Assembly: GCF_022846255.1 (NCBI RefSeq)
Contig: NZ_AP025682.1
Direction: 5' to 3' (one strand)
Length of the DNA stretch: 64,000 nt
Source of the DNA: Escherichia coli
Lineage (GTDB): Bacteria; Pseudomonadota; Gammaproteobacteria; Enterobacterales; Enterobacteriaceae
Shown: positions 14,179 through 34,472 of the stretch, one piece after another
Numbering within the stretch: the first letter of the stretch is position 1
How the letters are laid out: the number at the start of each line of letters is the position of its first letter
The notes under the pieces: generated by a model
Seen by the model: only the letters and a program-made list of their open reading frames with translations
Database searches by the model: none
Told to the model about the DNA's origin: nothing
Position numbers and translations under genes: made by a program

Positions 14179-14213
14179 CATTATTCTGCAAAACATGGAA
14201 TTTTGACATTAAC

Positions 14214-14239
14214 GCCGGATGGAGATTAATCCATCCGGC
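14214..14239. terminator. 10-bp perfect inverted repeat (gccggatgga / tccatccggc) between convergent genes
   Basis: Hairpin read directly from the sequence between the hypT stop and the NhaC-like gene stop; no strong U-tract, so terminator function is uncertain. Confidence 0.35.
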
Positions 14240-14264
14240 AAACGCATTTATTATCTTGAATAAC

Positions 14265-15668
14265 TCAGGCCTTTGCTTCGTTGAAGCGCAGTAAACGGAA
14301 ACCTGTAGAAGCATAGATCAACGCAAATATCATCGAGCAGAAACAGAATACACAGTACGGCAAGTAACTAAACGTCGGCACGCCTAGTGTTGTCGCCATA
14401 TACAATCCGGCAGCTGACCACGGAATAATTGGCGCGCTCATGGTGCCAAAATCTTCCAGCGTTCGGGCTAAGACTAACGGTGATAAATTAAGATCTTCGA
14501 ATTTCTTCATCATCAATTCAGATATAACAATCTTATTCAAACCATCAGAACCGGTAAGTAAGTTAATGATGATCGCTAAAACACCGCTTGCCAGAATAGC
14601 GCCAAAGGCACTTTTTATTTTGTTTGCCGCACTTTGTAATGTGACATCCATCATTCCTGTTCCCGTCAGGATGCCAGCAAACATCATGGCGCAGATAATA
14701 AATGACAGGAATCCGCCCTGATTATTCAGGCCGCCTTGTTCAAGCAGTTCTTTCACAGAAGGTAACAGCGTCGTTGAATCAGTGATCATCGTCAGACGGA
14801 AACCACTCATTGTGGCCTTAATACCTTCGGCCAGCGGGAAACCTTGATACAGCCATCCAACCAATACGGCCACGAACGCACTGCTTAATAATGCCGGTAC
14901 TGTAGGCAAACGCAAAAAGGTAAAGCACAGAACAATAAGCATAGGCAGTAGCGGTAACAGACCAAACTTATATAACTCTTTGAGCTGTACCAGCATCTGC
15001 ATGCTTTCTGGTGAAATAGAGCCCGTAGAAGTATGAATCATTCCCAGCCAGGTAAAAAACAGCAGGCTAATAATCGTTGATGGGATGGTCGTCCAGAGTA
15101 GATATTTAATCAGATCATAAAGTTTAGTTTTGGTTACCGCTGAAGTCAGGTTAGTGGTATCACTTAACGGTGAAAGTTTGTCGCCAAAATAAGCCCCGGT
15201 AACAATGGCTGCCGCCAGAATTGGAAGATCGGCATGTAAGCCGGAACCGATGCCCATTAATGCAACACCAATAGAAGCGACAGATCCCCATGATGCCCCG
15301 GAAACATAGGACAATACTGCGTTCAGAAAAAACGCTATGGCATAAAGCCATGCGGGCGCAACCAGTAACATACCGTAATAAACCAGCATCGGCAGTGTAC
15401 CTGCATAGCTCCATGTCGCGACCATAAAGCCAACGAAAATAACGATAAGTACTGGTGCCATCACCGCCGAAATCTTATCGATAATAAACCCCTGGATTTC
15501 ATCCCAGGTATATTTCAGCTTAGCCATTGCAATAATGCAGGAAAACGCCGCTGAAATTAATAAACAGACGCTGGCAGGCCAGCCCATAACACCGATGCCA
15601 ACAACCAACACGATCATCATAAAAATGATCGGTGTAAGCGCGACATAAAAACTGGGTTTTTCTCTCAT
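14265..15668 (-). CDS. NhaC-family transporter (Na+/H+ antiporter or organic-acid antiporter superfamily)
   Basis: 467-aa polytopic membrane protein; 14-nt gap after the FAD oxidoreductase gene upstream on the same strand. Confidence 0.7.
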   Translation of the reverse strand: MREKPSFYVALTPIIFMMIVLVVGIGVMGWPASVCLLISAAFSCIIAMAKLKYTWDEIQGFIIDKISAVMAPVLIVIFVGFMVATWSYAGTLPMLVYYGMLLVAPAWLYAIAFFLNAVLSYVSGASWGSVASIGVALMGIGSGLHADLPILAAAIVTGAYFGDKLSPLSDTTNLTSAVTKTKLYDLIKYLLWTTIPSTIISLLFFTWLGMIHTSTGSISPESMQMLVQLKELYKFGLLPLLPMLIVLCFTFLRLPTVPALLSSAFVAVLVGWLYQGFPLAEGIKATMSGFRLTMITDSTTLLPSVKELLEQGGLNNQGGFLSFIICAMMFAGILTGTGMMDVTLQSAANKIKSAFGAILASGVLAIIINLLTGSDGLNKIVISELMMKKFEDLNLSPLVLARTLEDFGTMSAPIIPWSAAGLYMATTLGVPTFSYLPYCVFCFCSMIFALIYASTGFRLLRFNEAKA

Positions 15669-15682
15669 AACTTTATTCCCTG

Positions 15683-17053
15683 TTAAAAGACTTTTACGCC
15701 ATTTTGCTGTAAGCGTTCCTGTACCGTCTGAATATCTACCTGTGAAACGGTAGTGTTATTTTTAATGGCAATAGCAGCGGCAGTCCCTGCACCTTCTCCA
15801 GTGACAATACAACACCCCATATTACGGATTGTCGCGTAGGCGAAATTATCTGCATCGATTGCCCGTCCGCAAACCAACAGGTTTTCAACTTGCTGCGGAA
15901 TCATTACGCCATAAGGGATTTGAAAATAGTTCGCTTCAAGAGGTAATTTAAGATGACCATTTCCATCTATAAACTCAGGGAATACCCCTATTGAATCCGC
16001 ATGACGTCCCTCATTACAAATATCATTTTCAGTTAATTGTGTTCGCCCGAGAATATGTCTTGATTCCCTTGTTCCCACCGTCATACCGAAGTTTTTTAAT
16101 TGTGCCTGTTCAAATCCTGGCTGGAATTGACGCAACGCTTCTATCGCCTGCATGGCTTGTTTGCGGCCCTCTATTTCGGCACGCGTCAGGTCAAAAACAT
16201 CTGTACAATCAACGGCAGGGATGCTGACAACGTTCAAGTAATTCGCATCACCATACTCGGTGACCGTACTCCAGGAACCGCCTAATGTCACATCTTCAGG
16301 AATAATTCCTGCCGCCTTTCCTTTCGCAAAGACTTTACCCAGATAAGGGCTAAACATATCGCGACAAGATTCATGAACATCATAAGACCAGTTTTTATTT
16401 TCTTCATCCGCCCCCCAGTCTCCATATTTAGGTTCCGTGCTCTTAATATTTTGCATGAACGCGTTTTTATTTATATTTGCGCAACTAAAAACGGTTGTCA
16501 TACACATTAGCTCTTCGCGTTCACGCTTAATAAATGGTGCTCCGGCAAACCATGCAATATCAGCATCGCCAGTACAGTCAATAATGACATTTGCCAAAAT
16601 AGCCTGACGACCAGATTTACTCTCTGTTATTACGCCGAGTAAATTATTGCCCTGCTTGATAACATCAACGGCGGTAATGTGTAGTACGCGGCGCACACCT
16701 GCCTGTTCAAGCATTGCATCCGCAACCAGTTTGAAACGCTCGGCGTTAATAGCCTGACTATTCGATTGCGGCTCAGGGCTGGACGCCCCCATTGATTTTG
16801 CCGTTTCTTCTATTTCGCGTGCCAGTCCACCTGACTCTACCGTATTTTCATGACGCCACCAGGCAATTGACTCGACGCCAGCCGTTGTCATCATTCCGCC
16901 AAAACAACCGAAACGTTCAATCAGCATAGTAGCTGCGCCTTCACGAGCGGCACTCATTGCTGCGGCAATACCCGATGGACCACCACCAACAACTAACACT
17001 TCCGTGGTTGCCAGCACAGGTATATTACGAGCGGGTTCCAGATAAAATTCCAT
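15683..17053 (-). CDS. FAD-dependent oxidoreductase, paralogue A
   Basis: N-terminal dinucleotide-binding motif VLVVGGGPSGIAAA; ATG at 17051-17053 with a ggaga SD; paralogous to the ORF at 26207..27601 (shared motifs GGxLTxxGVESxAWxRH, CTGDADIA, FQIPYG). Confidence 0.8.
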   Translation of the reverse strand: MEFYLEPARNIPVLATTEVLVVGGGPSGIAAAMSAAREGAATMLIERFGCFGGMMTTAGVESIAWWRHENTVESGGLAREIEETAKSMGASSPEPQSNSQAINAERFKLVADAMLEQAGVRRVLHITAVDVIKQGNNLLGVITESKSGRQAILANVIIDCTGDADIAWFAGAPFIKREREELMCMTTVFSCANINKNAFMQNIKSTEPKYGDWGADEENKNWSYDVHESCRDMFSPYLGKVFAKGKAAGIIPEDVTLGGSWSTVTEYGDANYLNVVSIPAVDCTDVFDLTRAEIEGRKQAMQAIEALRQFQPGFEQAQLKNFGMTVGTRESRHILGRTQLTENDICNEGRHADSIGVFPEFIDGNGHLKLPLEANYFQIPYGVMIPQQVENLLVCGRAIDADNFAYATIRNMGCCIVTGEGAGTAAAIAIKNNTTVSQVDIQTVQERLQQNGVKVF

Positions 17054-17339
17054 ACTTTATCTCCGTATTCAATAATTGAGTAAAACAATCCCCCGCGCTT
17101 ATATAAGCGCGTTGATATTTTTAATTATTAACAAGCAACATCATGCTAATACAGACATACAAGGAGATCATCTCTCTTTGCCTGTTTTTTATTATTTCAG
17201 GAGTGTAAACACATTTTCCGCCTCCCTGGCTAATAACCACATTGGCATTTATGGAGCACATCACAATATTTCAATACCATTAAAGCACTGCACCAAAGTG
17301 AAACACTGCGACATTAAAATTATTTCAATTTGAAAAGCA

Positions 17340-19289
17340 TCAATCTGCATGCTCAACATTTGGATAGAGATTATAGATTTTAAGTTTGCGCCATAATGTT
17401 GTACGACCAATTTTTAATACTTCAGCTGCTTTAGTTAGATTCCATTCGCAGACACGACATGTATGCTCAATAGCTTGCATCTCCAATTCTGCCAGTGAAG
17501 TAAGATGAGGGATATCATCGTCGCCACTACTGTTATTTTGTCGGATATCCAGAGGAATATTCTCTAACCCGAGGACAAGTCGATTGCAGTTAATAAATAC
17601 CTTCTCCATTCGATTTTTGAACTCGGAGATGTTCCCAGGCCAACGGTACTCAAGCAGAACTGAATTTGCGTCAGGCGTGATTGTCATTTTTTTTCGAGTG
17701 CGCTCCTGATACTTATCAATAATATCGTCAATCATTTGCTTGAGATCTTCACGACGTTTGCGCAATGGCGGAATTTCAATTTCATTCATGGAGATCTCAT
17801 AATATAGCTGTCGGCTAAAAGCCCCTTGTTGCACGTACTCACGTAAAGAACTACTGGTACATGTAATCAGGCGAAAGCGTACGGGGATCAAACGATGGCT
17901 GTCTGAGCGAGTAACAAGCCCCGTTTTCAATACTTTCAATAAAACACTCTGAACTTCCCCTGATAGATATTCGACTTTATCCAGATATAAGGTGCCATTA
18001 TGAGCCAGTTCAAATTTCGATGGCGAAGGGCCAACATCAGAGCCAAGAAGTTCGTGTAAGATATTTTCTGGTGATAGCATCTGACAATCTACAGAAATAA
18101 ATGGCCCATCACGTTGCTCGCTCTCATTATGTATTGCCATCGCCAAACTCAATTTTCCCACACCTTCTTCGCCATTGATCAAAATCGGAGAGATGGATTT
18201 AATTGCCCGGCGAGCGATAAGTAATACCTGCTTCATACCACCTGAAGCCGCATGTAAACTGTCAAAGGTAAAATTTGCATTAGTGCTTATTTGCTGTTGG
18301 GCTATTTTCCTGATTTTGTCTAATGGATGAAGAAAAAGCAAAAACGAACCATCGCTTAACGGGCGAAGGGTAACCATAAGTTCAATAAATTCGCCACGGC
18401 ATTCGAGGACAATTTGCTTTTGCGATAGTTTGTTTCGTTGTGTAATTGCCTCATTCAAAATCGGCGGAAATACGAATCCTTTTCGGATGTTCTGACCAAT
18501 TAAACTTTCTTTATCAATATTCAGTAATGTTTGTGCTTGAGAATTAACCATCGTAATTAAAGAATGACTATTCCAACAAATAAAACCGTCATCCATACAT
18601 TCAATCACAGCATTATGCTGGCAAAGTACTTTGTTTATTAACTTTTGTTCATTCTCAATATAGATATAATTAGCGATTTCTGTTGCACATGAATATGATG
18701 TTTTTAATTTAACAAGCTCGGCGGTGGTTTCAATTATACATACAATGTATCCATGTATATTACCATAATAATCAATGACCGGAGCTGCGCTCATCGCATA
18801 ACAATGTAGCTGTTCACTAAAATGTTCTGCTCCTTCCAGTTGTGTATATAAATTTGTTTCCCGACAAAGACTATATACATTGGTTCCAATGCCATCTTCG
18901 GCCCATGACATACCAGATTCAATTCCTAACTCTCGCAATTGACTGGAATAATCGCCTGCTGCATTCAACGATAGAACCCAGCCGTGTGGGTCAATGATCA
19001 AAAATGCCAACCGGTCGTCACCAGCCAGGGTGAAATGGTCTTCAACAACTCTTTGTGAAATTCTAATAAACTCTTCGTTACGAGAAAAAATCGTCTGCAA
19101 TGTTTGCCCGGAAGCTTTGACAGGCGTGTTCCAGTGGCGAGGGTCACAATGCTTGAGACATTTTTGCCATGACCTCAGCATCACATGATTAGTCGAATTT
19201 GTCGCGACCCAACCATGCTTAACAAACATTTTCCATTTATTTTTTAGATCATTATGATACGACTCTTTATTCATTATAATAATATCCAT
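17340..19289 (-). CDS. DhaR-type transcriptional activator (sensory N-terminal region + AAA+ domain + C-terminal HTH) lacking the GAFTGA sigma-54 contact motif
   Basis: AAA+ Walker A GEEGVGK, ...HNESEQRDGPFISVDC..., C-terminal Fis-type HTH (IGRTTLWRKLK). The usual GAFTGA position reads GSDVGPSPSKFE, as in DhaR-like regulators that act with sigma-70. Confidence 0.8.
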   Translation of the reverse strand: MDIIIMNKESYHNDLKNKWKMFVKHGWVATNSTNHVMLRSWQKCLKHCDPRHWNTPVKASGQTLQTIFSRNEEFIRISQRVVEDHFTLAGDDRLAFLIIDPHGWVLSLNAAGDYSSQLRELGIESGMSWAEDGIGTNVYSLCRETNLYTQLEGAEHFSEQLHCYAMSAAPVIDYYGNIHGYIVCIIETTAELVKLKTSYSCATEIANYIYIENEQKLINKVLCQHNAVIECMDDGFICWNSHSLITMVNSQAQTLLNIDKESLIGQNIRKGFVFPPILNEAITQRNKLSQKQIVLECRGEFIELMVTLRPLSDGSFLLFLHPLDKIRKIAQQQISTNANFTFDSLHAASGGMKQVLLIARRAIKSISPILINGEEGVGKLSLAMAIHNESEQRDGPFISVDCQMLSPENILHELLGSDVGPSPSKFELAHNGTLYLDKVEYLSGEVQSVLLKVLKTGLVTRSDSHRLIPVRFRLITCTSSSLREYVQQGAFSRQLYYEISMNEIEIPPLRKRREDLKQMIDDIIDKYQERTRKKMTITPDANSVLLEYRWPGNISEFKNRMEKVFINCNRLVLGLENIPLDIRQNNSSGDDDIPHLTSLAELEMQAIEHTCRVCEWNLTKAAEVLKIGRTTLWRKLKIYNLYPNVEHAD

Positions 19290-19667
19290 TCAAGTCATTT
19301 TCAGAACTTGTATCAGAATGCTATGCCAGTAAGCTTGATCAAACGCAATAATATCTAGCCTGGATCATTACAAAAACAGACCTTATCAACAATGTAATCA
19401 CACATACATTAGAAATAATAACCGTTAAAGCAATAAAAAACGAATGATACATTAGATAAATTTTAAAACTGCCAACAACATCTGAAATCTTTGCGTTTGA
19501 TATTTATAATTATTCAAACTGAAACAACACAGGCATACGAGTTGTTTCACTGTGAAACAGTGCAGCGAAATTTGTTCTGCCCTTTTATTTCCTCAAAGAT
19601 ATTTCATCGTTAAATTCCAAAATTGACTGACTATTCAACTCAGCGTAAATATCAGGAGAAATAATGT

Positions 19668-21407
19668 ATGGCGAGGATGCGTGCAATCGAAGCTGCAGTA
19701 GAAATACTGAAAAAAGAAGGCATTAGCGTTGCTTTTGGTGTACCCGGCGCAGCAATAAACCCACTCTATGCCGCGATGAAAAAATCAGGCGGTATTGATC
19801 ATATTCTGGCCCGTCATGTTGAGGGCGCCTCGCATATGGCTGAAGGTTACACCCGCAGTCAGAATGGCAATATTGGCGTGTGTATTGGCACATCAGGCCC
19901 TGCGGGCACTGATATGATTACCGGGCTGTATTCTGCCTCTGCGGATTCCATTCCTATTCTCTGCATTACTGGTCAAGCTCCCGTAGGAAAACTTCATAAA
20001 GAAGATTTCCAGGCCGTCGATATTGAGGCTATCGCCACGCCAGTAACCAAAATGGCTCGCACAATTCTCGAAGCGGGTCAGTTGCCGGGGATATTCCAGA
20101 AAGCCTTCTGGGAAATGCGTTCAGGCCGCCCTGGCCCGGTTCTTTTAGATCTCCCTTTTGATGTTCAGATGACCGAAATTGAGTTTGATATCGATCTCTA
20201 TCAGCCACTCACTCCCTGGAAACCCCAGGCGACGCTGGCCCAGGCCGTACGCGCATTAGAAATGCTAAATGACGCCGAAAAGCCCGTCATCATCGCTGGC
20301 GGTGGCATTATTAACGCCGAAGCGAGTGAATTGTTGCGTGAGTTTGTCGAGTTAACTGGCGTTCCCGTCATTCAAACCTTACGCGGTTGGGGCGCTTTAT
20401 CAGACGATCACCCCCTAATGATTGGTCGCATGGGATGTCAGGCGGGTCATCGCTATGGTAACGCCAGTTATCTGGCCTCAGATTTTGTTTTTGGTATCGG
20501 TAACCGTTGGGCAAACCGCCATACCGGAGCCATTGAGACCTACACCGAAGGCCGCAAATTCATTCATGTTGATATCGAACCTGCACAAATTGGCCGGATA
20601 TTTGCGCCGGATCTGGGCATTGTTTCTGATGCTGAAAGCGCCTTAACGCTATTTATTCAGGTCGCCCGTGATATGAAGTCACGTGGAGAACTGAAAGACC
20701 GCAGTCGCTGGATTGCCGAATGTGCCGAGCGTAAACGCACAATGCTTCGTCGTTCAGACTTTGACTGCAATCCAATTAAACCGCAGCGCGTGTATCACGA
20801 AATGAATAAGGTTTTCGGACCGGAGACACGCTATATTTCGACAATTGGTCTGGCGCAAATCGCCGCAAACCAATTTTTACATGTTTACCGCCCACGCCAC
20901 TGGATTAATGCCTGTCAGGCTGGGCCGCTAGGCTGGACAATGCCCGCAGCACTGGGCGCGGTAAAAGCTGATCCATCTGTTCCCGTTGTGGCAATATCCG
21001 GTGATTACGATTTTCAGTTCTTGATTGAAGAATTAGCCGTCGGCGCACAATTTAATCTTCCGTATATCCATATTTTACTTAACAACGCTTATCTTGGTTT
21101 GATTCGTCAATCACAACGTGCATTTGATATTGATTATTGCGTTCAACTGTCATTTGAAAATATTAATGCTCCAGAAATTAATGGTTATGGCGTTGATCAT
21201 AAAGCTGTGGTTGAAGGATTAGGATGTAAAGCGATTCGCGTATTCGCATCACAGGATATTGCGCCTGCACTGCAAGAAGCCCAGCGTTTGCGTGACGAAT
21301 TTCACGTACCTGTTGTTGTGGAAATTATTACTGAACGCGTGACTAATATCGCTATGGGACCTGACATTAATAAAGTCACAGAATTTGAAGAAATTCTCGA
21401 TTTATAA
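19668..21407 (+). CDS. gcl: Glyoxylate carboligase-like thiamine-diphosphate enzyme
   Basis: 579-aa TPP enzyme whose N-terminal region (GVPGAAINP...[19 protein letters not shown]...[32 protein letters not shown]) closely resembles Gcl as I recall it; followed by hyi-, glxR- and glxK-like genes. The symbol denotes a paralogue, not necessarily the allantoin-regulon gcl. Confidence 0.75.
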
Positions 21408-21419
21408 GGAAACAGGATT

Positions 21420-22202
21420 ATGGCAAAGTTTGCAGCAAATTTATCTATGCTCTTTACCGAGTATCCATTTATTGAACGTTTTGCACAAGCAAGTCACGCA
21501 GGATTCCACGGCGTTGAGTATCTTTTCCCCTATGACTTTTCCGCAGATGAGTTGGTTTCGCAACTGCATCAACATAATCTGACGCAGGTTCTGTTTAATC
21601 TTCCTGCGGGTAACTGGCAAGAGGGTGAACGGGGTATTGCATGTCATCCTGGTCGGGCAAAAGAATTTCAGGAGGGCGTTTCCAGGGCAATAGAGTATGC
21701 ATTGGCCCTTAATTGTTCACAAGTTAATTGCCTTGCAGGAAAACATCCAGGTGGTTATTCGCATGAACAATGTCATGAAACACTGGTCGAAAATTTGCGC
21801 TATGCAGTAGATAAATTGGCTTCTCATGGCATAAAGTTAGTTCTGGAAGCCATTAATACAAAAGATATTCCCGGTTTTTTTGTTAACAACACCAGACAAG
21901 CTCTCAATATTATTCATGATGTAAATCATCCTGATTTTCGCTATCAATACGATATTTATCATATGCAAATCATGGAAGGGAATATTGCTACAACAATCAA
22001 AAACAACCTGAATAACATTGGACATATTCAATTAGCCGATAACCCTGGGCGTCATGAACCAGGGACGGGAGAAATTAATTACCCGTGGTTGTTAAATTAT
22101 ATAGACCAGATTGGTTATCAGGGATGGATTGGTTGCGAATATGTTCCATCTACGACAACGACTGAAAGTCTACGCTGGCTAAAAAACGAGACTCAATTTT
22201 AA
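21420..22202 (+). CDS. hyi: Hydroxypyruvate isomerase-like TIM-barrel protein
   Basis: 260 aa with N-terminal FAANLSMLFTEYPF and Hyi-like motifs (GEINYP, GWIGCEY); 12-nt gap after the gcl-like gene. Confidence 0.75.
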   Translation: MAKFAANLSMLFTEYPFIERFAQASHAGFHGVEYLFPYDFSADELVSQLHQHNLTQVLFNLPAGNWQEGERGIACHPGRAKEFQEGVSRAIEYALALNCSQVNCLAGKHPGGYSHEQCHETLVENLRYAVDKLASHGIKLVLEAINTKDIPGFFVNNTRQALNIIHDVNHPDFRYQYDIYHMQIMEGNIATTIKNNLNNIGHIQLADNPGRHEPGTGEINYPWLLNYIDQIGYQGWIGCEYVPSTTTTESLRWLKNETQF

Positions 22203-22219
22203 TCCCTGAGGTATTTATC

Positions 22220-23107
22220 ATGAATATTGGATTTATCGGCACCGGCATAATGGGTAAGCCGATGGCTTATAATTTACAACAAGCCGGACATACTCTTTAT
22301 TTTTCAGCGCATTTTGAACCTGCACCGCAAGAGCTTATTGGTGAACGTGGCATTGTTTGCTCTACACCGCGTGAAGTCGCGCAGGAGTGTGAGGTCATCA
22401 TCACCATGCTCCCTGATACCCCACATGTTGAGGATGTTCTTTTTCATCCCAACTATGGCGTAATACACGGTTTAAGCCACGGGAAAATTGTGATTGATAT
22501 GAGTTCAATTTCCCCGGTTGCCACCAAAGCATTTGCACAACGTATTATCGCGGGAGGCGCGGAATATATCGATGCGCCCGTCTCTGGCGGTGAAGTTGGC
22601 GCGAAAGCCGGGACGCTTTCCATTATGGTTGGCGGATGTGAAGAGGTTTATTTGCAGATCAAACCGATTCTGGAATTGATGGGTAAAAATATCACTCTGG
22701 TCGGTAACGTCGGTGATGGTCAAACGTGCAAAGTCGCTAACCAAATTATTGTTGCACTGAATATTGAAGCGGTGGCTGAAGCCCTGCTCTTTGCCAGTAA
22801 ATCAGGTGCCGATCCCGCCCGCGTACGTGAAGCGCTGATGGGAGGGTTTGCCTCCTCTCGCGTGCTGGAAGTTCATGGCGAACGGATGATTAAAGGAACA
22901 TTCGAACCCGGTTTTCGTATTAGTCTGCATCAAAAAGATCTGAATCTGGCGCTGGAGAATGCCCGCCTGTTGAATACCCCGCTTCCTAACACGGCGACGA
23001 CACAGCAGTTATTTAGCGCCTGCGCCGCGCTCGGTGGTAAAGAGTGGGATCATTCTGCGTTAATTCGGGCGCTTGAAACACAAGCCAATTTCACTATCCG
23101 TAAATAA
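22220..23107 (+). CDS. glxR: Tartronate semialdehyde reductase / 3-hydroxyisobutyrate dehydrogenase-family NAD(P) oxidoreductase
   Basis: N-terminal Rossmann motif GFIGTGIMG and conserved GDGQTCKVANQIIVALNIEAV...MGGFASSRVLEVHGERMIK block. Confidence 0.75.
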   Translation: MNIGFIGTGIMGKPMAYNLQQAGHTLYFSAHFEPAPQELIGERGIVCSTPREVAQECEVIITMLPDTPHVEDVLFHPNYGVIHGLSHGKIVIDMSSISPVATKAFAQRIIAGGAEYIDAPVSGGEVGAKAGTLSIMVGGCEEVYLQIKPILELMGKNITLVGNVGDGQTCKVANQIIVALNIEAVAEALLFASKSGADPARVREALMGGFASSRVLEVHGERMIKGTFEPGFRISLHQKDLNLALENARLLNTPLPNTATTQQLFSACAALGGKEWDHSALIRALETQANFTIRK

Positions 23108-25906: not shown

Positions 25907-25929
25907 TTCAGTCTCCTGAATGTTTTCAT

Positions 25930-26154
25930 TCAATGAGGACGAATATTTCGCCGTTCCTTTTTCATGTGTTGCAATTGTCGGGAAAGGCGTAAAGAAAAAA
26001 AGGCGCAAATAAGTGAAAGAGCCGCAATACAATACAGAGCTAAACCACGCTGATGCTGTTGCAGCATGAACAGGAATATCCCCAAAAAGAGGCCGCAGAG
26101 AACTGTGGTTATCCAGTAATTGGCACTTAAGTGCTCCAGGTCATCATCCCTCAT
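25930..26154 (-). CDS. Small 2-TM membrane protein (74 aa) immediately upstream of the BCCT transporter gene
   Basis: ATG at 26152-26154 (reverse strand) preceded by aggaga; stop 23 nt before the BCCT start; two hydrophobic helices. Codon-by-codon reading places this ORF on the minus strand although the supplied track labels it +. Confidence 0.5.
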   Translation of the reverse strand: MRDDDLEHLSANYWITTVLCGLFLGIFLFMLQQHQRGLALYCIAALSLICAFFSLRLSRQLQHMKKERRNIRPH

Positions 26155-26206
26155 GGTCTTTCTCCTGCAAGGCGCAGACAGGCTTTCAGCTCTCTGCGCC
26201 TTGTTG

Positions 26207-27601
26207 TTATGCCAGACGTACGCCCTGCTGTTGCAGCGTGTTTTGCAAATCAGGGATAGCAACCTGACGCACGGTGCAATTTTGCTGTAGCGAAACCACG
26301 GCGGCAGTACCTGCGGCCTCACCGGTAACGGCACAACACATCATGTTACGCATAGAAGTATGTGCAACTACGCCTGCGGAAATACAGCGACCGGCGACCA
26401 AAAGGTTCTCCACTTTTTGCGGCACCAGACAACCATAAGGGATCTGAAAGAAACGCCCGGTCGTTGGCAAAATGAGATAACCGGAACCATCAATAAATTC
26501 CGGGAAAATCCCTACACTGTCCGAACAACGCCCCTGATTAAGGACGTAATCATCAGCAATACGTATTTCCCCCTCAATAAGCCGTGATTCACGCGTCCCC
26601 AGCGTGGCACCAAAATTGCGTAACCGTACATTTTCAAAGCCCGGAACATAATGGCGTAGAGCGTCAATTGCCCATAATGCTTGCTGCCTTCCGGCAATCT
26701 CAGCTTTGGTTAAATCGAAGACATCGGTACAGTCAAAACCAAAGGCGTACACCATATTCATCTGGAAAGCCTCACCGCTTTCAGAAAAGGTCGACCAGGT
26801 TCCGGCAATCGCCTGGGCGTCACCTGGAATCACACCATCCTGTTGCGCGCGGGTAAAAATATCCTCCATATACGGGCTAAACATCGGGTCTTCTTTACCC
26901 GTGGTTTGAATCGTCCAGTTTTTGCCCCAATCCGCGTAGGTCGGCTTAAGTTCTTCCGCAACAAAACGGTTAAAGCGTGCCACATCAACACCTGCGCAAC
27001 TGAACATCACGGTGACGCCCATCAGTTGGTCCTTGCTCCGTTTCGTCCAGGGCGCGCCTGCACGAGCGGCAATATCAGCATCCCCCGTGCAATCGACGAT
27101 TCTTTTCGCCAGAATTGCCCCTCGACCTGATTTATTCTCGACGATAACACCGCATAACGTATTCCCGTCCTTGATCACGTCCACAACCCAGGAGTGATAT
27201 AACGGCTCAACGCCAGATTCCGTAATCATCTGATCGGCGACAACTTTAAATCCTTCAGTATCTATAACTTCGCTAATTGACTGAGGTTCTGGTCGTGTGA
27301 AGCCCAATGCTCGCGCGCGGCCTTCATATTCACGACAAATCCCTTCACAATCTTCCGTCCCCGGATGGCGATACCAGGCAAAACTTTCCACACCAACCTG
27401 CGTCAATACGCCGCCTAGTGAGCCGTAACGCTCAACAATCATGGTTCTGGCACCTAGCCGCCCCGCCGCTATCGCCGCCGTTAATCCTGCCGGACCGCCC
27501 CCGATAACCAGAACGTCCGTTTGTGCAATGACTGGCGTTTGCCGTGCACTTTCATTAATCATGTCCACCATTGGTTCCCCCGTCAGATTCAGGATGCGCA
27601 A
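26207..27601 (-). CDS. FAD-dependent oxidoreductase, paralogue B
   Basis: N-terminal VLVIGGGPAGLTAA FAD-binding motif; paralogue of 15683..17053. The start may be one of the downstream in-frame ATGs, because 27589..27601 overlaps the MFS gene. Confidence 0.8.
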   Translation of the reverse strand: MRILNLTGEPMVDMINESARQTPVIAQTDVLVIGGGPAGLTAAIAAGRLGARTMIVERYGSLGGVLTQVGVESFAWYRHPGTEDCEGICREYEGRARALGFTRPEPQSISEVIDTEGFKVVADQMITESGVEPLYHSWVVDVIKDGNTLCGVIVENKSGRGAILAKRIVDCTGDADIAARAGAPWTKRSKDQLMGVTVMFSCAGVDVARFNRFVAEELKPTYADWGKNWTIQTTGKEDPMFSPYMEDIFTRAQQDGVIPGDAQAIAGTWSTFSESGEAFQMNMVYAFGFDCTDVFDLTKAEIAGRQQALWAIDALRHYVPGFENVRLRNFGATLGTRESRLIEGEIRIADDYVLNQGRCSDSVGIFPEFIDGSGYLILPTTGRFFQIPYGCLVPQKVENLLVAGRCISAGVVAHTSMRNMMCCAVTGEAAGTAAVVSLQQNCTVRQVAIPDLQNTLQQQGVRLA

Positions 27602-28857
27602 TCCGCATTGTTTTGAGTGATTTCATTGACTTGATTTTTACTTTTACGATTCACACGCTGGAGGACCAGTGCGGCGATAAGGCCGATGAATGCGCAAACC
27701 AACATGAACAGGAAAACATCCTGATAACCGGCAATACCCGGTTTGCGGTCGACCATATTGCCCACCATCGTGTAGCAGTAGATTTCCGGGAAATAGGTCA
27801 GTAAAGAGATCAGACCCGCAGCAGTCCCTGTGACTTTTGCCGGGATCCGAACCTCATCAATAATTGAGAAGAACACGGCATTCGCAGAGTAAATAAACAC
27901 GCCCAACGCAACCATATTCGCCAGCGCAATAGTGACGTAGCGCGACTCACCGGGCAGGAAGAAATAAACGGTAGTAAAGACAATCATGCCGATAAAGGCG
28001 TAAATCATAAAACGCGTGCGTGACGCACAGCGGTCGGCCAGTTGTCCGCCAATTAATCCCCCCATCGCAAATAACACATAGGCGCGAAGAATACTGGCAA
28101 CTGCCACTTCCGATTCGCCCATATGCAGGATCTGCGTGAGATACGGCGTGACCATGCCAAAGCCGATATAAATTGACCACATACAAAAGGTCACAACACC
28201 TGCCAGCCAAACCGTCGGCATTTTCAGCACGAATGCCATATCTGCCAGACGGAAATTCGCTTTATCTTCGCTGTGCGTTTCATCCTGACAAACAAACCAG
28301 GCTAAAACACCGGCCAGAATAGTCACTACGGAATAAAAAATAATTGTCGCCCGTAAACCATCAACACCTTCGCCAAATTTGGCAAATACCGGCACGGAAA
28401 GAAATCCCAGTACAATGGAGGTTAATCCCTTACCCAGAAACCAGTAACCGTATAAGCGACCTTGTTCTTCGCTGGTTCCCAGGGTACGAATAATTCGCAC
28501 ACACACGGCCCAAAACGTAAATACGGTTGTAACAGCCCAAAGTGCATGTAACAAACAGATCATGGTATACGAGGGGAAGGTCGCATAATAAAAACCACTT
28601 ATCCCGGTGGAAATTAATGAAAAGGTCATTAATTTACGTGCAGAAAATCTATCGGCAGCCCAACCGCCAGGTAGATATAATAAAAAGTTCACCAGACCAT
28701 AGGCTGTCATTAGAAAACCAAGTTCAGCATTAGTCGCTCCTGTAGCCTGCTGCATCGCGTCGTAATAGGTTTCCCGTAAATAAGGCAATTTATATATTGC
28801 ACTTCCGGCAATACCACATAACGCCAGCGTGATCCAACGTTTCCAGTTACTGGTCAT
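27589..28857 (-). CDS. MFS transporter
   Basis: 422-aa 12-TM-type protein; first transporter of the gldA-like / MFS / FAD-oxidoreductase / BCCT minus-strand gene string. Confidence 0.75.
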   Translation of the reverse strand: MTSNWKRWITLALCGIAGSAIYKLPYLRETYYDAMQQATGATNAELGFLMTAYGLVNFLLYLPGGWAADRFSARKLMTFSLISTGISGFYYATFPSYTMICLLHALWAVTTVFTFWAVCVRIIRTLGTSEEQGRLYGYWFLGKGLTSIVLGFLSVPVFAKFGEGVDGLRATIIFYSVVTILAGVLAWFVCQDETHSEDKANFRLADMAFVLKMPTVWLAGVVTFCMWSIYIGFGMVTPYLTQILHMGESEVAVASILRAYVLFAMGGLIGGQLADRCASRTRFMIYAFIGMIVFTTVYFFLPGESRYVTIALANMVALGVFIYSANAVFFSIIDEVRIPAKVTGTAAGLISLLTYFPEIYCYTMVGNMVDRKPGIAGYQDVFLFMLVCAFIGLIAALVLQRVNRKSKNQVNEITQNNADCAS

Positions 28858-28922
28858 ATTTATTCCCGAATGAAGTATTTAAAATGACACCAACGGCCTG
28901 CTTTGCACAGGCCGTATTATTT

Positions 28923-30005
28923 TTAAAGTCCCAAATGATGTGCAGTTAAAATTGCACAAAGAACGTCCTGCGCTGTTACTACGAATGGCATATTATGGAT
29001 AGTTTCCCCTTCAGCAGTCGCGGCTTTAGCCACTGCCCGTAATTTATCTTTATTAATTTCCTTCACGCCTAACATATGAAGATTTGTCGGCAAGCCAACG
29101 CTATGGCAGAAATTGAGTACGGTTTCAATTTCCTCCTGTGGTGCGTTTTCCAGTACGAGCTGTACCAGGACGCCAAATGCCACTTTTTCACCGTGGTAGC
29201 AATGATGGCATTCCTCCAGTTGCGTCATGCCGTTATGAATGGCATGAGCTGCCGCCAGGCCGCTACTTTCAAATCCAATGCCGCTAAGATAGGTATTAGC
29301 TTCGATAATATTCTCTACCGCTTTGGTGCTAACACCTTGTTCAACCGCGACTTTTGCCTTATAGCCATCTTCCAGTAGCGTGGTATAACAGAGTCGGGCA
29401 ATAGCCAGTGCCGCCAGTGTCGACGCCCCACCTGCCATTGTGGCTTTTCCTGACGCCTGATTGGCTCTCGCCTCAAACCAGGTTGACAATGCATCTCCCA
29501 TACCGGCCACCAGCAGACGCACTGGCGCGGCTGAAATGACGCCAGTATCCATAATCACCATATCCGGGTTTTTCGGGAAAAACAGATATTCGCTAAACTG
29601 ACCTTCCGGGGTGTAAATTACCGCCAGAGAACTGGTTGGCGCATCTGTGGAAGCAATTGTCGGCACCACCACCACCGGAATTTTTTGGTAATACGCTACG
29701 GCTTTTGCCGTATCCAACGTTTTACCGCCGCCAATACCAATAACGACATTATATTTACGCTGATTAAATTTCTCACGAATTCGAGAAATTTCATTTTGCG
29801 AGCATTCACCACAAAAGATATCAAAATCTGCAGTAATATTTTCTTTTGCAAAGCTCTGGCTTACTCTGTCACCCACCAGACCGGTCACAAATTCATCTGC
29901 AATAATTAATGGTTCTGTTCCCAAACTCGCCGCATATGTAGCAATATTATCCAGAGAACCATTTCCCTGGATATATTTAGCCGGACTTATAATAATCTTA
30001 TCCAT
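28923..30005 (-). CDS. gldA: Glycerol dehydrogenase-like iron-containing/group III polyol dehydrogenase
   Basis: 360 aa with GldA/DhaD-family motifs (GGGKTLDTAKA, metal-binding His cluster); divergent from dhaKLM. Symbol denotes a paralogue. Confidence 0.75.
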   Translation of the reverse strand: MDKIIISPAKYIQGNGSLDNIATYAASLGTEPLIIADEFVTGLVGDRVSQSFAKENITADFDIFCGECSQNEISRIREKFNQRKYNVVIGIGGGKTLDTAKAVAYYQKIPVVVVPTIASTDAPTSSLAVIYTPEGQFSEYLFFPKNPDMVIMDTGVISAAPVRLLVAGMGDALSTWFEARANQASGKATMAGGASTLAALAIARLCYTTLLEDGYKAKVAVEQGVSTKAVENIIEANTYLSGIGFESSGLAAAHAIHNGMTQLEECHHCYHGEKVAFGVLVQLVLENAPQEEIETVLNFCHSVGLPTNLHMLGVKEINKDKLRAVAKAATAEGETIHNMPFVVTAQDVLCAILTAHHLGL

Positions 30006-30324
30006 ATCATTCCTCGCGTAACTTGTTTTGCTTCACTGTTAACCTACTCGTTGCATCCAGTAGCGGCAAACATTTCATTCGCGAAAAATTATGTTTTATG
30101 ATCGCGCTGTAAAAAACATCATCTGCAGATGATAATAAAAAACACTTTTCATGCCTTAATCACAATATATCAATATCCACGCTGGTCCCATTTCATTTTG
30201 GAACAACACAATGAATTAACTGTTTCATTATGAATCTTATTATCGTGCGATTTGTTTTATTGCGGCTGGAGAATTAATCTCGCAAGCATATTTAGCGCGA
30301 TTTACGTAATTTATCAGAACAGGA

Positions 30325-31395
30325 ATGACTATGAAGAAATTAATTAACCAGATTGATTCTGTTGTCACAGAACAAATGGAAGGACTCATCGCCACCTGGC
30401 CACACCTGCAGGCAAATTACGCGCCCCGATATGTGTGGTGCAAACAAACCGATAATGCAGTGGCGCTGATTTCAGGCGGCGGCTCAGGCCATGAACCACT
30501 GCATGCAGGTTTTGTCGGTATGGGAATGTTAACCGGTGCATGTCCTGGTGAAATCTTCACATCGCCCACACCAGATCAAATGATCGAATGTGCCAAAGCG
30601 GTTGATAATGGTTCTGGCGTTCTGTTTTTCATCAAAAATTACACTGGCGATATTCTGAATTTCGAAACGGCAGTCGAGATGTTACACGAAGAAGGCATCG
30701 CCGTTGGGACCGTCATTATTGATGATGATGTAGCGGTAAAAGATAGCCTGTATACAGCCGGACGTCGCGGTGTTGCGGGTACAGTTTTTGTTGAAAAGAT
30801 TGTCGGTGCGGCTGCACTTCAGGGATATAACCTGGGGCAGTGCGAGCAACTTGGCAAAGATGTTAACAATGCCACCCGTTCTTTTGGCATCGCACTGTCA
30901 GCCTGTACGGTTCCCGCCGCGGGAAAACCCTCATTTGAACTGGCTGATAATGAAATCGAATTTGGTGTCGGGATCCACGGTGAACCCGGCATTGAACGCC
31001 GCACTTTGCAAGATCTGAACACTTTAATCGACAGCGTGATAGCGCAATTACTGGATAATACCCCCTGGCGACGCACATTACGCCATTGGGATCGCCATGC
31101 GGGGGGATGGATTGACGCATCATCAATGAATGAGTCATTCGATCAAAATGCCGAATATATTGTGTTAATTAACGGACTTGGCAGCACGCCTGAATCAGAG
31201 TTATATGGTGTAGCCAGGGTATTTATGTGCGCCGCACAGCGCCAGGGAATTAAAATTAGCCGCCAGTTGGTCGGTAATTATTGTACATCATTAGATATGG
31301 CCGGATTTTCCATTAGCCTGCTGAAATGTACCCCAGAGTTTTTGCAACTTTGGGATGCCCCGGTCAATACGCCAGCGCTTCGTTGGGGATGTTAA
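30325..31395 (+). CDS. dhaK: Dihydroxyacetone kinase, substrate-binding subunit DhaK
   Basis: 356-aa DhaK-family protein (GGGSGHEP motif). Confidence 0.8.
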   Translation: MTMKKLINQIDSVVTEQMEGLIATWPHLQANYAPRYVWCKQTDNAVALISGGGSGHEPLHAGFVGMGMLTGACPGEIFTSPTPDQMIECAKAVDNGSGVLFFIKNYTGDILNFETAVEMLHEEGIAVGTVIIDDDVAVKDSLYTAGRRGVAGTVFVEKIVGAAALQGYNLGQCEQLGKDVNNATRSFGIALSACTVPAAGKPSFELADNEIEFGVGIHGEPGIERRTLQDLNTLIDSVIAQLLDNTPWRRTLRHWDRHAGGWIDASSMNESFDQNAEYIVLINGLGSTPESELYGVARVFMCAAQRQGIKISRQLVGNYCTSLDMAGFSISLLKCTPEFLQLWDAPVNTPALRWGC

Positions 31396-31407
31396 TAAGG
31401 ACATTAT

Positions 31408-32040
31408 ATGAAAATTCAAAACAAACATGTTATTGCCTGGCTGGAGAGTTGTGCTGCACATCTTACTGAACAACAAGATTTTCTAACCGCACTTGACAGA
31501 GATATTGGTGATGCCGACCACGGCCTCAATATGAATCGTGGTTTCAGTGCCGTGAAAGCGACGTTGCCCGACATTGAACGTCAGCATATTGGCAATATCC
31601 TTAAAAATACTGGCATGAAACTACTTTCCAGCGTTGGCGGTGCCAGTGGTCCTCTTTACGGCACATTATTTATTCGCGCTTCTGCGGCAGTGGGAGCCAG
31701 AACAGAATTAAGTCTGGAAGAGTGGCTGGCGTGTCTGGAAGAAGGGATTGCAGGCGTTATCGCACGAGGAAAAGCAGAACAAGGGGATAAAACACTGTGT
31801 GATGTCTGGGTTCCAGTCCTCCACGAAGCCAAAAAGAACCTGCAAGCCGGAATGTCGCCTTCCCTTCTGCTGAATACGATGGTGCAAGATGCGGCAACAG
31901 CCGTCGATAACACCATCAATATGCAGGCGAAAAAAGGACGTGCCAGTTATCTCGGCGCTCGCAGTGTGGGCCATCAGGATCCAGGCGCGACCTCCTCCTG
32001 GCTGATGATTAAGGCTATGCAGGAAGGATTCGCGGGATAA
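31408..32040 (+). CDS. dhaL: Dihydroxyacetone kinase, ADP-binding subunit DhaL
   Basis: 210-aa DhaL-family protein (DRDIGDADHG motif). Confidence 0.8.
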   Translation: MKIQNKHVIAWLESCAAHLTEQQDFLTALDRDIGDADHGLNMNRGFSAVKATLPDIERQHIGNILKNTGMKLLSSVGGASGPLYGTLFIRASAAVGARTELSLEEWLACLEEGIAGVIARGKAEQGDKTLCDVWVPVLHEAKKNLQAGMSPSLLLNTMVQDAATAVDNTINMQAKKGRASYLGARSVGHQDPGATSSWLMIKAMQEGFAG

Positions 32041-32043
32041 ATT

Positions 32044-34425
32044 ATGGTTGCCATTGTTATTGTTTCTCATAGTCTACGTCTCGCCCAGGGGATTGAGGAA
32101 TTAGCACTACAGATGTCTGGAGGGGACGTTCCTCTGGCCATTGCTGCAGGTATTGATGATCCGCAACATCCGATTGGCACTGATGCTATTGCCATTATGT
32201 CTGCGATTGAATCGGTCTGGTCACCGGATGGCGTTCTGGTACTCATGGATATGGGCAGTGCGCTGCTTAGTACCGAGATGGCGCTGGAGCTGCTTTCTGA
32301 AGAGCAAAGAAGTGCAATTTATCTGCTCGCCGCCCCTGTAGTGGAAGGTGCCATGTCAGCGGTAACGTCTGCCGCAGCGGGGCTTTCGGTGACGGAGATT
32401 ATCGCTGAAGTGGATCTTGCGCTGTGCGCTAAACAGCAGCAGCTCATGCCATCCCCGCCTGCAGGCGAGGTTATTCCAGCAATATCACCAGTCAATCATT
32501 CCGGTGAATGGCAAACTTTTTGCTGGACGATATGTAATCCCCACGGCATTCATGCTCGTCCGGCAGCCAGCATCCTGAAAGTATCAGCACAATATTCGGC
32601 AAACATTATCGTCATCAAAGGCGATAAACGCGCCAGCACCCGCAGTCTCAACGAACTGGCAATGCTGGGCGTCCGCTGTGGCGATGAAATCATCTTCCAG
32701 GCCGAAGGCACCGATGCCAGTGACGCTCTCAAGGCAATTGAAACGTTGGCGAAAAATCATTTTGGTGAAGCTCACCTGCTCGCTTCTTCAGAGATTCCGC
32801 TAACGGAAACGCCGGTGGTCAGCGCCCCTGTCGATGGCGCAATATCAGGCTTGTCAGTACAAAATGGTATCGCTATTGGTCCTGTTAAATGGTTTACCTG
32901 CGAACGACCAGAAATTACGCAGCGCACCGTCGATTCTCCGCAAGAAGAGCTGTCGCGAATCGAGTCTGCTATCGACATTGTTGTTTGTGAACTTGCCGAT
33001 AAAGCGGCAGGCCCTGAAGGCGATATTTTTGCCGCCCATAAAATGATGCTTGAAGATCCAGAGATTAACCGGCAATTACAGCAACGTCTGGCAAAGGGCA
33101 AACAGGCGGAATTCGCATGGTTAGAAGTCATGCAGGCATTAGCAGAGCAATATTGTCAGGCGGAAACACTGTATTTACGTGAACGCGAGGCAGATATCCG
33201 TGACCTTACACGTCAGGTACTGAACCAGCTTTGCGGGGTAAGTGAACAACACTTTATCACTACCGCGCCCTGCATTTTGTTAGCCAACGATCTGTTGCCA
33301 TCACAGATAACCAGCCTGAATAAAGCACACATTCTTGGCATTTGTCTTCATAACGGCGGAACAACTTCACATACAGCGATCCTTGCCAGAGCAATGGGAA
33401 TCCCCGCTATTGTGAAAGCGGCGATTACCCCGCAAAACGTCCGCGATAACGACACGGTCATTCTTGATGGTGAAACAGGCCGTTTGTGGCTACAGCCGGA
33501 TGAGGTCACCCGCCTGGATTTACTGCAACGCGCCGAAGCATGGCGGCAACAAAGGGATCGTCAGTTAGCTGATGCCATGCTGCCCGCTGTCACGCAAGGT
33601 GGGCGTAAAATCAGCGTGCTGGCGAATATTGGTGATCTGCAAGACATTGATGCCGCACTGTCTCACGGCGCTGAGGGCGTTGGCTTGCTGCGTACCGAGT
33701 TTTTATTCCACGATTCTGCGACATTACCTGATGAGGAAGAGCAGTTCCGTGTGTATTGTTCTGTCGCCCGAGTTTTTGGCGACAAACCAGTCACGATCCG
33801 GACTCTGGACATTGGTGGTGATAAACCGCTACCTTCATACCCTTTACCCACAGAGGACAACCCCTTCCTGGGACTTCGAGGTATCCGGTTGTGTCTGGCG
33901 CATCCACAAATATTTATTCCTCAATTGCGCGCACTTATCAGGGCCGGGAAAGAATACCCAACGTTGCAAATTATGCTGCCGATGGTTTCAACGCTCGAGG
34001 AGGTCAGGGCCGTCAAAACATTGATACATGCTCAGGCAAAACTGCTGGAACTTACTGCAGAAAATCTTCCGGCGCTGGGAATTATGATTGAGGTTCCTGC
34101 CGCAGTCATGATTGCAGACAAATTAGCCAGTGAAGTCGATTTCTTTTCCATCGGCACCAACGATCTGACGCAATATATTATGGCGGCAGACAGAGGAAAT
34201 AGCACCGTCGCGAAACTGGTCGATTATTGTAATGACGCGGTGATTAACGCTATTGCTATGGTGTGTCAGGCCGGACGTAATAATGAAATTCCGGTCAGTA
34301 TGTGCGGCGAAATGGCTGGAGATATCCAGCAAACAGCACGACTGCTCACCATGGGGATTGATAAGCTCAGTGCCAGTCCATCCCGGCTTCCGGCCTTGAA
34401 AGCAGCAATCAGAATCTCCCACTAA
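32044..34425 (+). CDS. dhaM: Multiphosphoryl transfer protein: DhaM-like EIIA + HPr + full-length PTS Enzyme I fusion
   Basis: N-terminal DhaM/EIIA-Man-like segment (IVSHS...GIDDPQHPIGTDA...MDMGSALLS), HPr-like segment (GIHARPAA), and a complete EI domain. From memory, K-12 DhaM carries a truncated EI domain. Confidence 0.75.
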   Translation: MVAIVIVSHSLRLAQGIEELALQMSGGDVPLAIAAGIDDPQHPIGTDAIAIMSAIESVWSPDGVLVLMDMGSALLSTEMALELLSEEQRSAIYLLAAPVVEGAMSAVTSAAAGLSVTEIIAEVDLALCAKQQQLMPSPPAGEVIPAISPVNHSGEWQTFCWTICNPHGIHARPAASILKVSAQYSANIIVIKGDKRASTRSLNELAMLGVRCGDEIIFQAEGTDASDALKAIETLAKNHFGEAHLLASSEIPLTETPVVSAPVDGAISGLSVQNGIAIGPVKWFTCERPEITQRTVDSPQEELSRIESAIDIVVCELADKAAGPEGDIFAAHKMMLEDPEINRQLQQRLAKGKQAEFAWLEVMQALAEQYCQAETLYLREREADIRDLTRQVLNQLCGVSEQHFITTAPCILLANDLLPSQITSLNKAHILGICLHNGGTTSHTAILARAMGIPAIVKAAITPQNVRDNDTVILDGETGRLWLQPDEVTRLDLLQRAEAWRQQRDRQLADAMLPAVTQGGRKISVLANIGDLQDIDAALSHGAEGVGLLRTEFLFHDSATLPDEEEQFRVYCSVARVFGDKPVTIRTLDIGGDKPLPSYPLPTEDNPFLGLRGIRLCLAHPQIFIPQLRALIRAGKEYPTLQIMLPMVSTLEEVRAVKTLIHAQAKLLELTAENLPALGIMIEVPAAVMIADKLASEVDFFSIGTNDLTQYIMAADRGNSTVAKLVDYCNDAVINAIAMVCQAGRNNEIPVSMCGEMAGDIQQTARLLTMGIDKLSASPSRLPALKAAIRISH

Positions 34426-34434
34426 TTGTGACCT

Positions 34435-34463
34435 AACGCGATACGTCTTGCGCGTATCGCGTT
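34435..34463. terminator. 11-bp stem hairpin (aacgcgatacg / cgtatcgcgtt) between the convergent dhaM-like and iraD genes
   Basis: Perfect inverted repeat 10 nt after the dhaM-like stop, followed by ttt; plausible factor-independent terminator. Confidence 0.45.
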
Positions 34464-34472
34464 TCCCGTCAT

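Follow-up and report, generated by a model that had tools for sequence, protein, structure and literature searches.

What is the block of about 20 kb that separates hypT from iraD in a minority of Escherichia coli chromosomes, how did it arise and what might it do for the cell? The question was raised by a 64,000-nucleotide stretch of contig NZ_AP025682.1 (E. coli assembly GCF_022846255.1), hereafter called the window, which relative to K-12 carries an insert of 20,294 bp at positions 14179-34472, between the 3' ends of hypT (ending at 14178) and iraD (ending at 34473). A preliminary description, made from the sequence alone, had read this insert as an accessory metabolic island originating from an ancestral indel. 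Our analyses indicate with high confidence that the block is the GimA (ibeA) locus and that it is non-mobile and ancestral. This identity had been missed by the preliminary description, and the locus has been under study for 25 years.

Identity and ancestry of the 20-kb block

The block was searched by megablast against 5,426 complete E. coli genomes and was found at 99.3% identity in strain MS20657, where the first flavoenzyme gene is designated ibeA by the NCBI annotation pipeline, with the product name 'putative intracellular survival FAD-dependent oxidoreductase IbeA' (FAD, flavin adenine dinucleotide). GimA, as summarised from its 2001 description, is a 20.3-kb cluster in the yjiD-yjiE interval, adjoining the fim operon and showing a G+C content of 46.2% (Homeier et al. 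2010, PMC2878320; Huang et al. 2001). Its genes are arranged in four operons, ptnIPKC, cglDTEC, gcxKRCI and ibeRAT, and the pptE/ptnI gene is 2,382 bp long (Homeier et al. 2010, PMC2878320). All these published features were matched in the window, namely the site, the size, the G+C content (46.17% for the island vs 49.5% for the remaining window, with single modules ranging from 39% to 52%), the four operons including ibeA and a 2,382-bp pptE open reading frame (ORF) at 32044-34425. In the aligned genome, the uxuRBA genes and the fim operon were located downstream of the site. The block shares with the published GimA loci of E. coli K1 RS218, UTI89, APEC O1 and BEN2908 the iraD-hypT site, size, G+C content, pptE/ptnI gene, four operons and ibeA, with no essential difference.

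The locus is then already known, GimA having been described in 2001 and its ancestral, non-mobile nature argued in 2010. The metabolic reading given in the preliminary description is also in print, since a published table that lists the island (RDI 22 of RS218) under 'Invasins (IbeA)' describes it as serving the metabolism of dihydroxyacetone, glycerol and glyoxylate. The full, remnant and empty allelic states of the published locus were all recovered in the present genomes, and the data added here consist of a conserved 74-aa ORF, the exact deletion joint of the remnant, a complete locus in the equivalent position of Escherichia albertii and the tallies for 5,426 complete genomes.

The boundaries of the block were then compared with the K-12 arrangement. 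As stated in the preliminary description, hypT and iraD are adjacent and convergent in K-12, and in a K-12-type genome (L003) the two genes overlap by 8 bp. The bounds it had placed at the two 3' ends agree with the ORF ends at 14178 and 34473; on the iraD side, however, homology to K-12 breaks within the last ~13 codons and not at the stop codon.

The preliminary description had proposed mapping the block across E. coli genomes, and with carriage of the whole locus defined as at least 80% of the query covered, it was present in 245 of the 5,426 genomes (4.5%). Island-type gcl was detected in 246 genomes and island-type dhaKL in 245, while the last 373 bp of ptnI occurred in 511 genomes, always on the chromosome and in single copy. 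About 266 genomes (4.9%) carried the GimA remnant only, an allele described by Homeier et al. 2010 (PMC2878320). In the remnant strain JCH8249 (L002, 2660-2690), a deletion fuses the last three codons of hypT to the interior of ptnI near window position 34043, and the surviving segment corresponds to window positions 34043-34472 (plus strand). The HypT C-terminus is thereby changed from VLS* to EPG*, encoded by ptnI-derived DNA. Because the hypT end is joined to the interior of ptnI, the sequence of the joint clearly points to the derivation of the remnant from the full locus by deletion. A published study of ST131 reported a further, recent loss of GimA in clade C.

A complete locus occupying the same chromosomal site was found in E. 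albertii, in the order iadA, ibeT through ptnI, iraD, yjiC, recovered as two stretches of one contig. E. albertii lacks hypT at the GimA site, ibeT being followed directly by iadA (L008, 11386-14147). Nucleotide identity to the window was 87.1% over the 12.9 kb covered (ibeT-cglE) and 88.5% for the yjiH-yjiG-iadA flank. Since island and flank are equally diverged, the comparison argues for an old origin, either by descent from an ancestor shared by E. coli and E. albertii or by an exchange very long ago, with repeated losses since then. This result upholds the ancestral-indel reading of the preliminary description and agrees with Homeier et al. 2010 (PMC2878320), whose conclusion was that phylogroup B2 carries GimA as an ancestral trait and not as a mobile island, its ibeA alleles following the multilocus sequence typing (MLST) phylogeny. 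In Citrobacter freundii, a collinear cglE-to-ibeT segment was found at 75.5% nucleotide identity in another chromosomal context.

Two other accounts of how the block came to lie at this site were weighed against these data. A recent mobile genomic island spreading horizontally among pathogenic E. coli would fit the deviating base composition (46.2% vs 49.5% G+C), the patchy presence in 4.5% of genomes and the collinear Citrobacter copies at another locus, but the usual signs of mobility were absent, as the preliminary description had stated. The scan for tRNA genes returned none in the 64-kb window, the best direct or inverted match common to both island ends was 9 nt long, which is chance level, and no integrase or transposase occurred among the island ORFs, all of which were assigned to metabolic, transport or regulatory families or to the conserved 74-codon ORF. 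Moreover, all 511 of the 511 occurrences were chromosomal and single-copy, at the same site where inspected, and the flank-like divergence of the E. albertii copy, the origin of the remnant by deletion and the MLST-congruent ibeA alleles (PMC2878320) likewise speak against recent spread, which we consider very unlikely. An assembly artefact joining the canonical gcl and dha loci has nothing in its favour except the shared gene names. Island gcl and dhaKL are only about 68% and 70% identical in nucleotides to their canonical counterparts, which are present in nearly all genomes. Island-bearing genomes carry each of them at two locations, and the arrangement recurs in about 245 genomes that were completed independently. 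As these are diverged second copies, a misassembly that relocated the canonical allantoin and dha loci, the outcome which the preliminary description had named as fatal to its reading, is ruled out for practical purposes, and the two sets stand as paralogues of the canonical ones.

Gene content and regulation

Fifteen large ORFs are present between hypT and iraD in the ORF table. Their families were assigned with NCBIfam models by comparing the bit score with the curated cut-off, and most of them scored above it. Four predicted transcription units result: ibeR-ibeA-ibeT, gcl-hyi-glxR-glxK, gldA-MFS-cglE-orf74-BCCT and dhaK-dhaL-dhaM::HPr::EI (EI, Enzyme I). The NCBIfam and Pfam assignments reproduced the gene content listed in the preliminary description, which comprised a DhaR-type regulator, the glyoxylate set, two FAD enzymes, three transporters, a GldA-like dehydrogenase and dhaKLM with a full-length EI fusion. 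On the left, the block is flanked by hypT (yjiE; 13267-14178, plus strand), which matches the HypT equivalog with 693 bits vs 301 and has a C-terminus identical to that of K-12. On the right, iraD (yjiD; 34473-34865, minus strand) scores 297 bits vs 196 with NF010728, and its last ~13 codons are unlike those of K-12.

The unit nearest to hypT (GimA4) is encoded on the minus strand. The product of ibeT (14265-15668) is a NhaC-family transporter scoring 380 bits vs 370 with TIGR00931 and named nhaC by the NCBI pipeline; its next-best model is the ArcD arginine/ornithine antiporter, with 291 bits, under the cut-off of that model. The adjoining ibeA (15683-17053) encodes a PF12831 FAD-dependent oxidoreductase (Pfam E = 3e-93) and carries the same name in the NCBI pipeline, while ibeR (17340-19289, pipeline start 19274) matches the DhaR equivalog NF008485 with 986 bits vs 551.

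The glyoxylate set (GimA3) follows on the plus strand, with intergenic gaps of 12, 17 and 74 bp, and all four families scored above cut-off. They are the gcl paralogue gcxC (19668-21407; TIGR01504/NF008431, 1077 bits vs 791 with the latter), the hyi paralogue gcxI (21420-22202; TIGR03234, 388 vs 353), the glxR-type 2-hydroxy-3-oxopropionate (tartronate semialdehyde) reductase gcxR (22220-23107; TIGR01505, 385 vs 341) and the glycerate kinase glxK, or gcxK (23182-24324; TIGR00045, 547 vs 168). The gcxI product also exceeded the cut-off of a 2-oxo-tetronate isomerase model (376 vs 325). The glycerate genes of the K-12 allantoin regulon comprise the same four enzyme families in the order gcl-hyi-glxR-glxK, island gcl being 68% identical; in contrast, the island lacks the allantoin genes allB, ybbW, ybbY, allA, allC and allD and has flavoenzyme and transporter genes instead.

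On the minus strand, the next unit (GimA2) begins with the GldA-family glycerol dehydrogenase (28923-30005; NF006941, 561 bits vs 336), named cglD by gene order, as are the following genes of this unit that bear cgl names. The MFS transporter cglT (27589-28857) showed weak matches only, to the PgtP and D-galactonate transporter subfamilies, whereas cglE (26207-27571) encodes the second PF12831 flavoenzyme (E = 2e-97). The CaiT-like BCCT transporter cglC (24380-25921; 513 aa according to the NCBI pipeline) has the carnitine/gamma-butyrobetaine antiporter as its best NCBIfam model, scoring 386 bits where the cut-off is 541. Between cglE and the BCCT gene lies the 74-aa ORF (25930-26154), which encodes two hydrophobic segments, is annotated as hypothetical by the NCBI pipeline and returned no family match in profile searches. 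Conserved counterparts occur in E. albertii (L009, 894-1118) and C. freundii (L010, 904-1134), and the names published for the genes of the four GimA operons do not include this ORF.

The dihydroxyacetone unit (GimA1) is located on the plus strand next to iraD and consists of the dhaK paralogue (30325-31395; TIGR02363, 460 bits vs 406), the dhaL paralogue (31408-32040; TIGR02365, 248 vs 138) and ptnI/pptE (32044-34425), whose 2,382 bp equal the length of the published pptE and encode a 793-aa fusion of DhaM, HPr and full-length EI. Within this fusion, the DhaM model TIGR02364 covers residues 2-123 (118 bits vs 98), the HPr model residues 161-235 and the EI model TIGR01417 residues 267-790. DhaK, DhaL, the DhaM domain and the DhaR-type regulator were all above equivalog cut-offs, and the same four families make up dhaR-dhaKLM of K-12, island dhaKL being about 70% identical in nucleotides. 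The two systems differ in that the K-12 type DhaM profile, 473 residues long, ends at residue 483 of the island fusion, which adds a complete EI including the phosphoenolpyruvate (PEP)-binding domain. Moreover, the island regulator lies 10 kb from dhaK and adjoins gcl.

The regulator was examined for features of the sigma-54 enhancer-binding class. IbeR contains a Walker A motif, while no GAFTGA-like motif was found in it within two substitutions, and a scan of the island for -24/-12 sigma-54 promoters returned matches inside genes only and none in intergenic regions. The contact loop and the promoters that define the class were both absent. The DhaR protein of K-12 is likewise not known to contain the sigma-54 contact motif. 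Because of the missing GAFTGA motif and intergenic -24/-12 sites, IbeR is probably a DhaR-type activator of sigma-70 promoters.

In order to search for an operator, three intergenic regions were compared (17054-17339, 19290-19667 and 30006-30324). A perfect 8-1-8 palindrome, TGTTTCACTGTGAAACA, occurs at 19543-19559 in the ibeR-gcl intergenic region, as the single occurrence in the window. Its candidacy as the IbeR operator was dropped, as 20 of 100 shuffled sequences gave at least one match and the palindrome was absent from E. albertii, Citrobacter and all the other fetched loci; since it is confined to the E. coli GimA, it provides no evidence of an operator. A consensus scan returned sigma-70 promoter-like counts at shuffle level in both halves of the island. 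Terminator-like sites were about as frequent as in shuffled sequence in the right half and numbered 19, vs a shuffle mean of 10.6, in the left half, where most of them were intragenic; these promoter and terminator scans are uninformative on the operon structure. A PADLOC scan returned no defence-system match except the generic AAA+ domain of IbeR.

Predicted function of the locus

The two flavoenzymes are central to the question of function. IbeA and CglE both belong to PF12831 and are 51% identical across their whole length. The N-terminus of IbeA is MEFYLEPARNIPVLATTEVLVVGGGPSG, with the dinucleotide-binding motif starting from residue 19 and GxGxxG at residues 23-28, and inspection of the sequence revealed no signal peptide. 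The AlphaFold2 model, calculated with 41 homologues, describes a compact two-domain flavoprotein with a predicted local distance difference test (pLDDT) score of 89.4 and a predicted template modelling (pTM) score of 0.92, and a PDB sequence search with IbeA returned matches limited to the Rossmann FAD motif. Literature searches retrieved neither a characterised PF12831 enzyme nor a substrate of GimA.

The IbeA/CglE family of PF12831 shows more than 50% identity across phyla. IbeA homologues were found at 93% identity in E. albertii and at 52-56% in Chloroflexi, Desulfobacula, Endozoicomonas and others. CglE is nearer to the wider family, since its identity is 56-60% in most comparisons and reaches 67-75% with the members from Vibrio VB16, Polycladidibacter and Endozoicomonas, and for this reason IbeA, together with IbeT, looks like a gammaproteobacterial offshoot.

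Gene contexts outside Escherichia were then inspected. Families handling glyoxylate or hydroxypyruvate were found beside the flavoenzyme gene in 11 of the 12 contexts examined, which are not a systematic sample and whose neighbours were annotated by family-level matches, mostly under equivalog cut-offs. The neighbours were gcl-hyi-glxR in five contexts (Pluralibacter, Vibrio 99-8-1, Serratia H1w, Citrobacter and Vibrio VB16), a class-V aminotransferase of the AGXT/BhcA/PhnW type in four, a glyoxylate/hydroxypyruvate-reductase-like (GhrB-like) dehydrogenase in one and a purine-catabolism cluster with a hyi homologue in another, the last context having none of these. The adjoining importer usually belonged to the CaiT-like BCCT, the NhaC-family or the Opp/Dpp-type ABC transporters.

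Serratia sp. H1w (L006) and Vibrio sp. VB16 (L019) carry a near-complete GimA gene set in other orders, including the dhaKLM-EI fusion, and share with GimA one or more PF12831 flavoenzymes, the BCCT transporter, gcl-hyi-glxR and a DhaR-like regulator. In Vibrio VB16 (L019, 259-16893) the order is dhaK, dhaL, dhaM::HPr::EI, porin, BCCT, CglE-like, 425-aa PF12831 protein, cyclophilin-like protein, chemoreceptor, gcl, hyi, glxR and DhaR-like; compared with GimA, the 425-aa PF12831 protein, the porin, the chemoreceptor and the cyclophilin-like protein are extra and the IbeA/IbeT pair is missing. The pair of 452-aa and 425-aa PF12831 genes of this strain was also found in L017 and L021.

Purine-related genes were observed beside two of the homologues. 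In Rhodobacteraceae bacterium 63075 (L007, 1571-11350), an IbeA homologue (47% identity) ends a cluster of xdhA, xdhB, guanine deaminase, a hyi-like isomerase and adenine deaminase, and the IbeA homologue of Desulfobacula (L012) adjoins XdhC and molybdenum-cofactor genes. The flavoenzyme family may be connected with the breakdown of purines or ureides, which also yields glyoxylate.

On the basis of these gene contexts, we propose that GimA is a catabolic locus, a reading to which we assign a probability of about 0.5. According to this proposal, one or two cationic nitrogen-containing compounds would be imported via IbeT (NhaC), the CaiT-like BCCT and/or the MFS carrier and oxidised by the cytoplasmic flavoenzymes IbeA and CglE. 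The two-carbon (C2) product glyoxylate would be converted by Gcl, Hyi/GlxR and glycerate kinase to phosphoglycerate, while the three-carbon (C3) product, glycerol or dihydroxyacetone (DHA), would be processed by the GldA-like dehydrogenase and the DhaK/DhaL kinase to dihydroxyacetone phosphate. The DHA kinase would be charged from PEP by the self-contained DhaM-HPr-EI fusion, whose full-length EI suggests that the general proteins of the phosphotransferase system may be dispensable. IbeR would act as a DhaR-type activator, probably at sigma-70 promoters, and the virulence, H2O2-resistance and fimbriation phenotypes of ibeA mutants would be indirect effects of metabolism.

The individual parts of the proposal differ in strength. 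The contexts recurring outside Escherichia provide moderate evidence for catabolic flavoenzymes with glyoxylate as product and for a functional link between the C2 and C3 arms. A cationic, nitrogen-containing substrate is probable, as suggested by the BCCT carrier, by ArcD as the second-best match of IbeT and by the Opp/opine-type binding proteins. A single imported substrate split into a C2 unit (glyoxylate) and a C3 unit (DHA) is plausible, and two related substrates are equally possible, because other genomes carry ibeA/ibeT with gcl, or the BCCT-flavoenzyme module, alone. Carboxymethyl-lysine, strombine, sarcosine, glycine betaine, serinol and the DGCC betaine-lipid headgroup were considered as substrates, and none of them could be ranked. 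For the reaction of IbeA and CglE, the DAO-type flavoenzymes (DAO/GR2 family), which oxidise amines, opines, glycine or sarcosine, were considered as a candidate class.

Several points weigh against the catabolic proposal and lead to two rival explanations. Besides the selection and the family-level annotation of the contexts, IbeA has been reported, in the published accounts of the invasin, as a surface protein binding vimentin and PSF, and the separation of the modules in some genomes means that a single substrate is not required. GimA might accordingly be mainly a virulence island, with IbeA acting as a surface invasin (vimentin, PSF) for brain endothelium and the metabolic genes only modulating its expression. 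In published work, mutants invaded brain endothelial cells less and were attenuated in rat and chicken models, vimentin/NF-kB signalling was described, and the locus is over-represented among meningitis and avian pathogenic isolates; however, commensal B2 strains (Homeier et al. 2010, PMC2878320) and E. albertii carry it as well. A surface location is hard to reconcile with the sequence of IbeA, which has no signal peptide and an FAD-binding motif from residue 19, with its predicted compact two-domain fold and with the IbeA/CglE relatives that free-living marine and anaerobic bacteria carry at 52-75% identity in transporter-plus-catabolic clusters. The current NCBI name, a 'putative intracellular survival FAD-dependent oxidoreductase', also disagrees with an invasin, and we regard this explanation as improbable.

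The modules might alternatively be independent pathways that are merely co-located, namely an additional glycerol/DHA system, an additional route from glyoxylate to glycerate and two pairs of transporter and flavoenzyme with no common substrate. Pluralibacter and Vibrio sp. 99-8-1 have only ibeR/ibeA/ibeT and the gcl operon, in the Endozoicomonas and Chloroflexi-type contigs a CglE-like gene is accompanied only by genes for a transporter and an aminotransferase, and the G+C content differs among the GimA modules, from 39% to 52%. The full set recurs in Serratia sp. H1w and Vibrio sp. VB16 with other gene orders, and a single DhaR-type regulator, adjoining gcl instead of dhaK, is present for the whole locus; both points speak against a chance association, and we consider independence rather unlikely, although clearly less so than the invasin explanation.

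The catabolic proposal can be extended to the family, at a confidence slightly short of even. IbeA and CglE would be the signature of a widespread catabolic module for a cationic nitrogen compound, in which a PF12831 flavoenzyme is combined with an importer of the BCCT, NhaC or Opp type and with a sink for glyoxylate, in many cases together with a DHA kinase driven by PEP. GimA would represent its enterobacterial version, and virulence would be a metabolic side-effect. Under this extension, betaines, aminopropanediols and N-carboxymethyl or opine-like amino acids are candidate substrates.

The surrounding window and the meaning of ibeA

Three further differences were observed in the window. 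The iraD-uxuR gap spans only 404 bp (34866-35269), where K-12-type genomes have idlP, ytiD and yjiC (DUF2686) and where E. albertii has yjiC beside iraD; it is a second indel adjoining the GimA site. At 39380-39431, about 1.18 kb of gntP is absent between uxuA and fimH and is present in the 99%-identical MS20657 (L023, 23935-25111), so that gntP appears to be deleted in the strain of the window. The segment 52800-64000 encodes a DEAD/DEAH helicase, a UvrD-like helicase, a class I SAM-dependent DNA methyltransferase and hypothetical proteins; it was covered by at least 80% in 525 of the 5,426 genomes, with plasmid copies in some, and looks like a variable defence-type island.

Many schemes for typing extraintestinal pathogenic E. 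coli score the ibeA gene as a marker of virulence. The value that remains to be drawn from the locus lies in its biochemistry, that is the substrate and the reactions of IbeA, of CglE and of GimA as a whole. The comparative contexts, with a predicted cytoplasmic flavoenzyme, a predicted glyoxylate product, a probably cationic substrate and a gene set reassembled in Vibrio and Serratia, offer a testable frame for the question of whether IbeA is an invasin or an enzyme.

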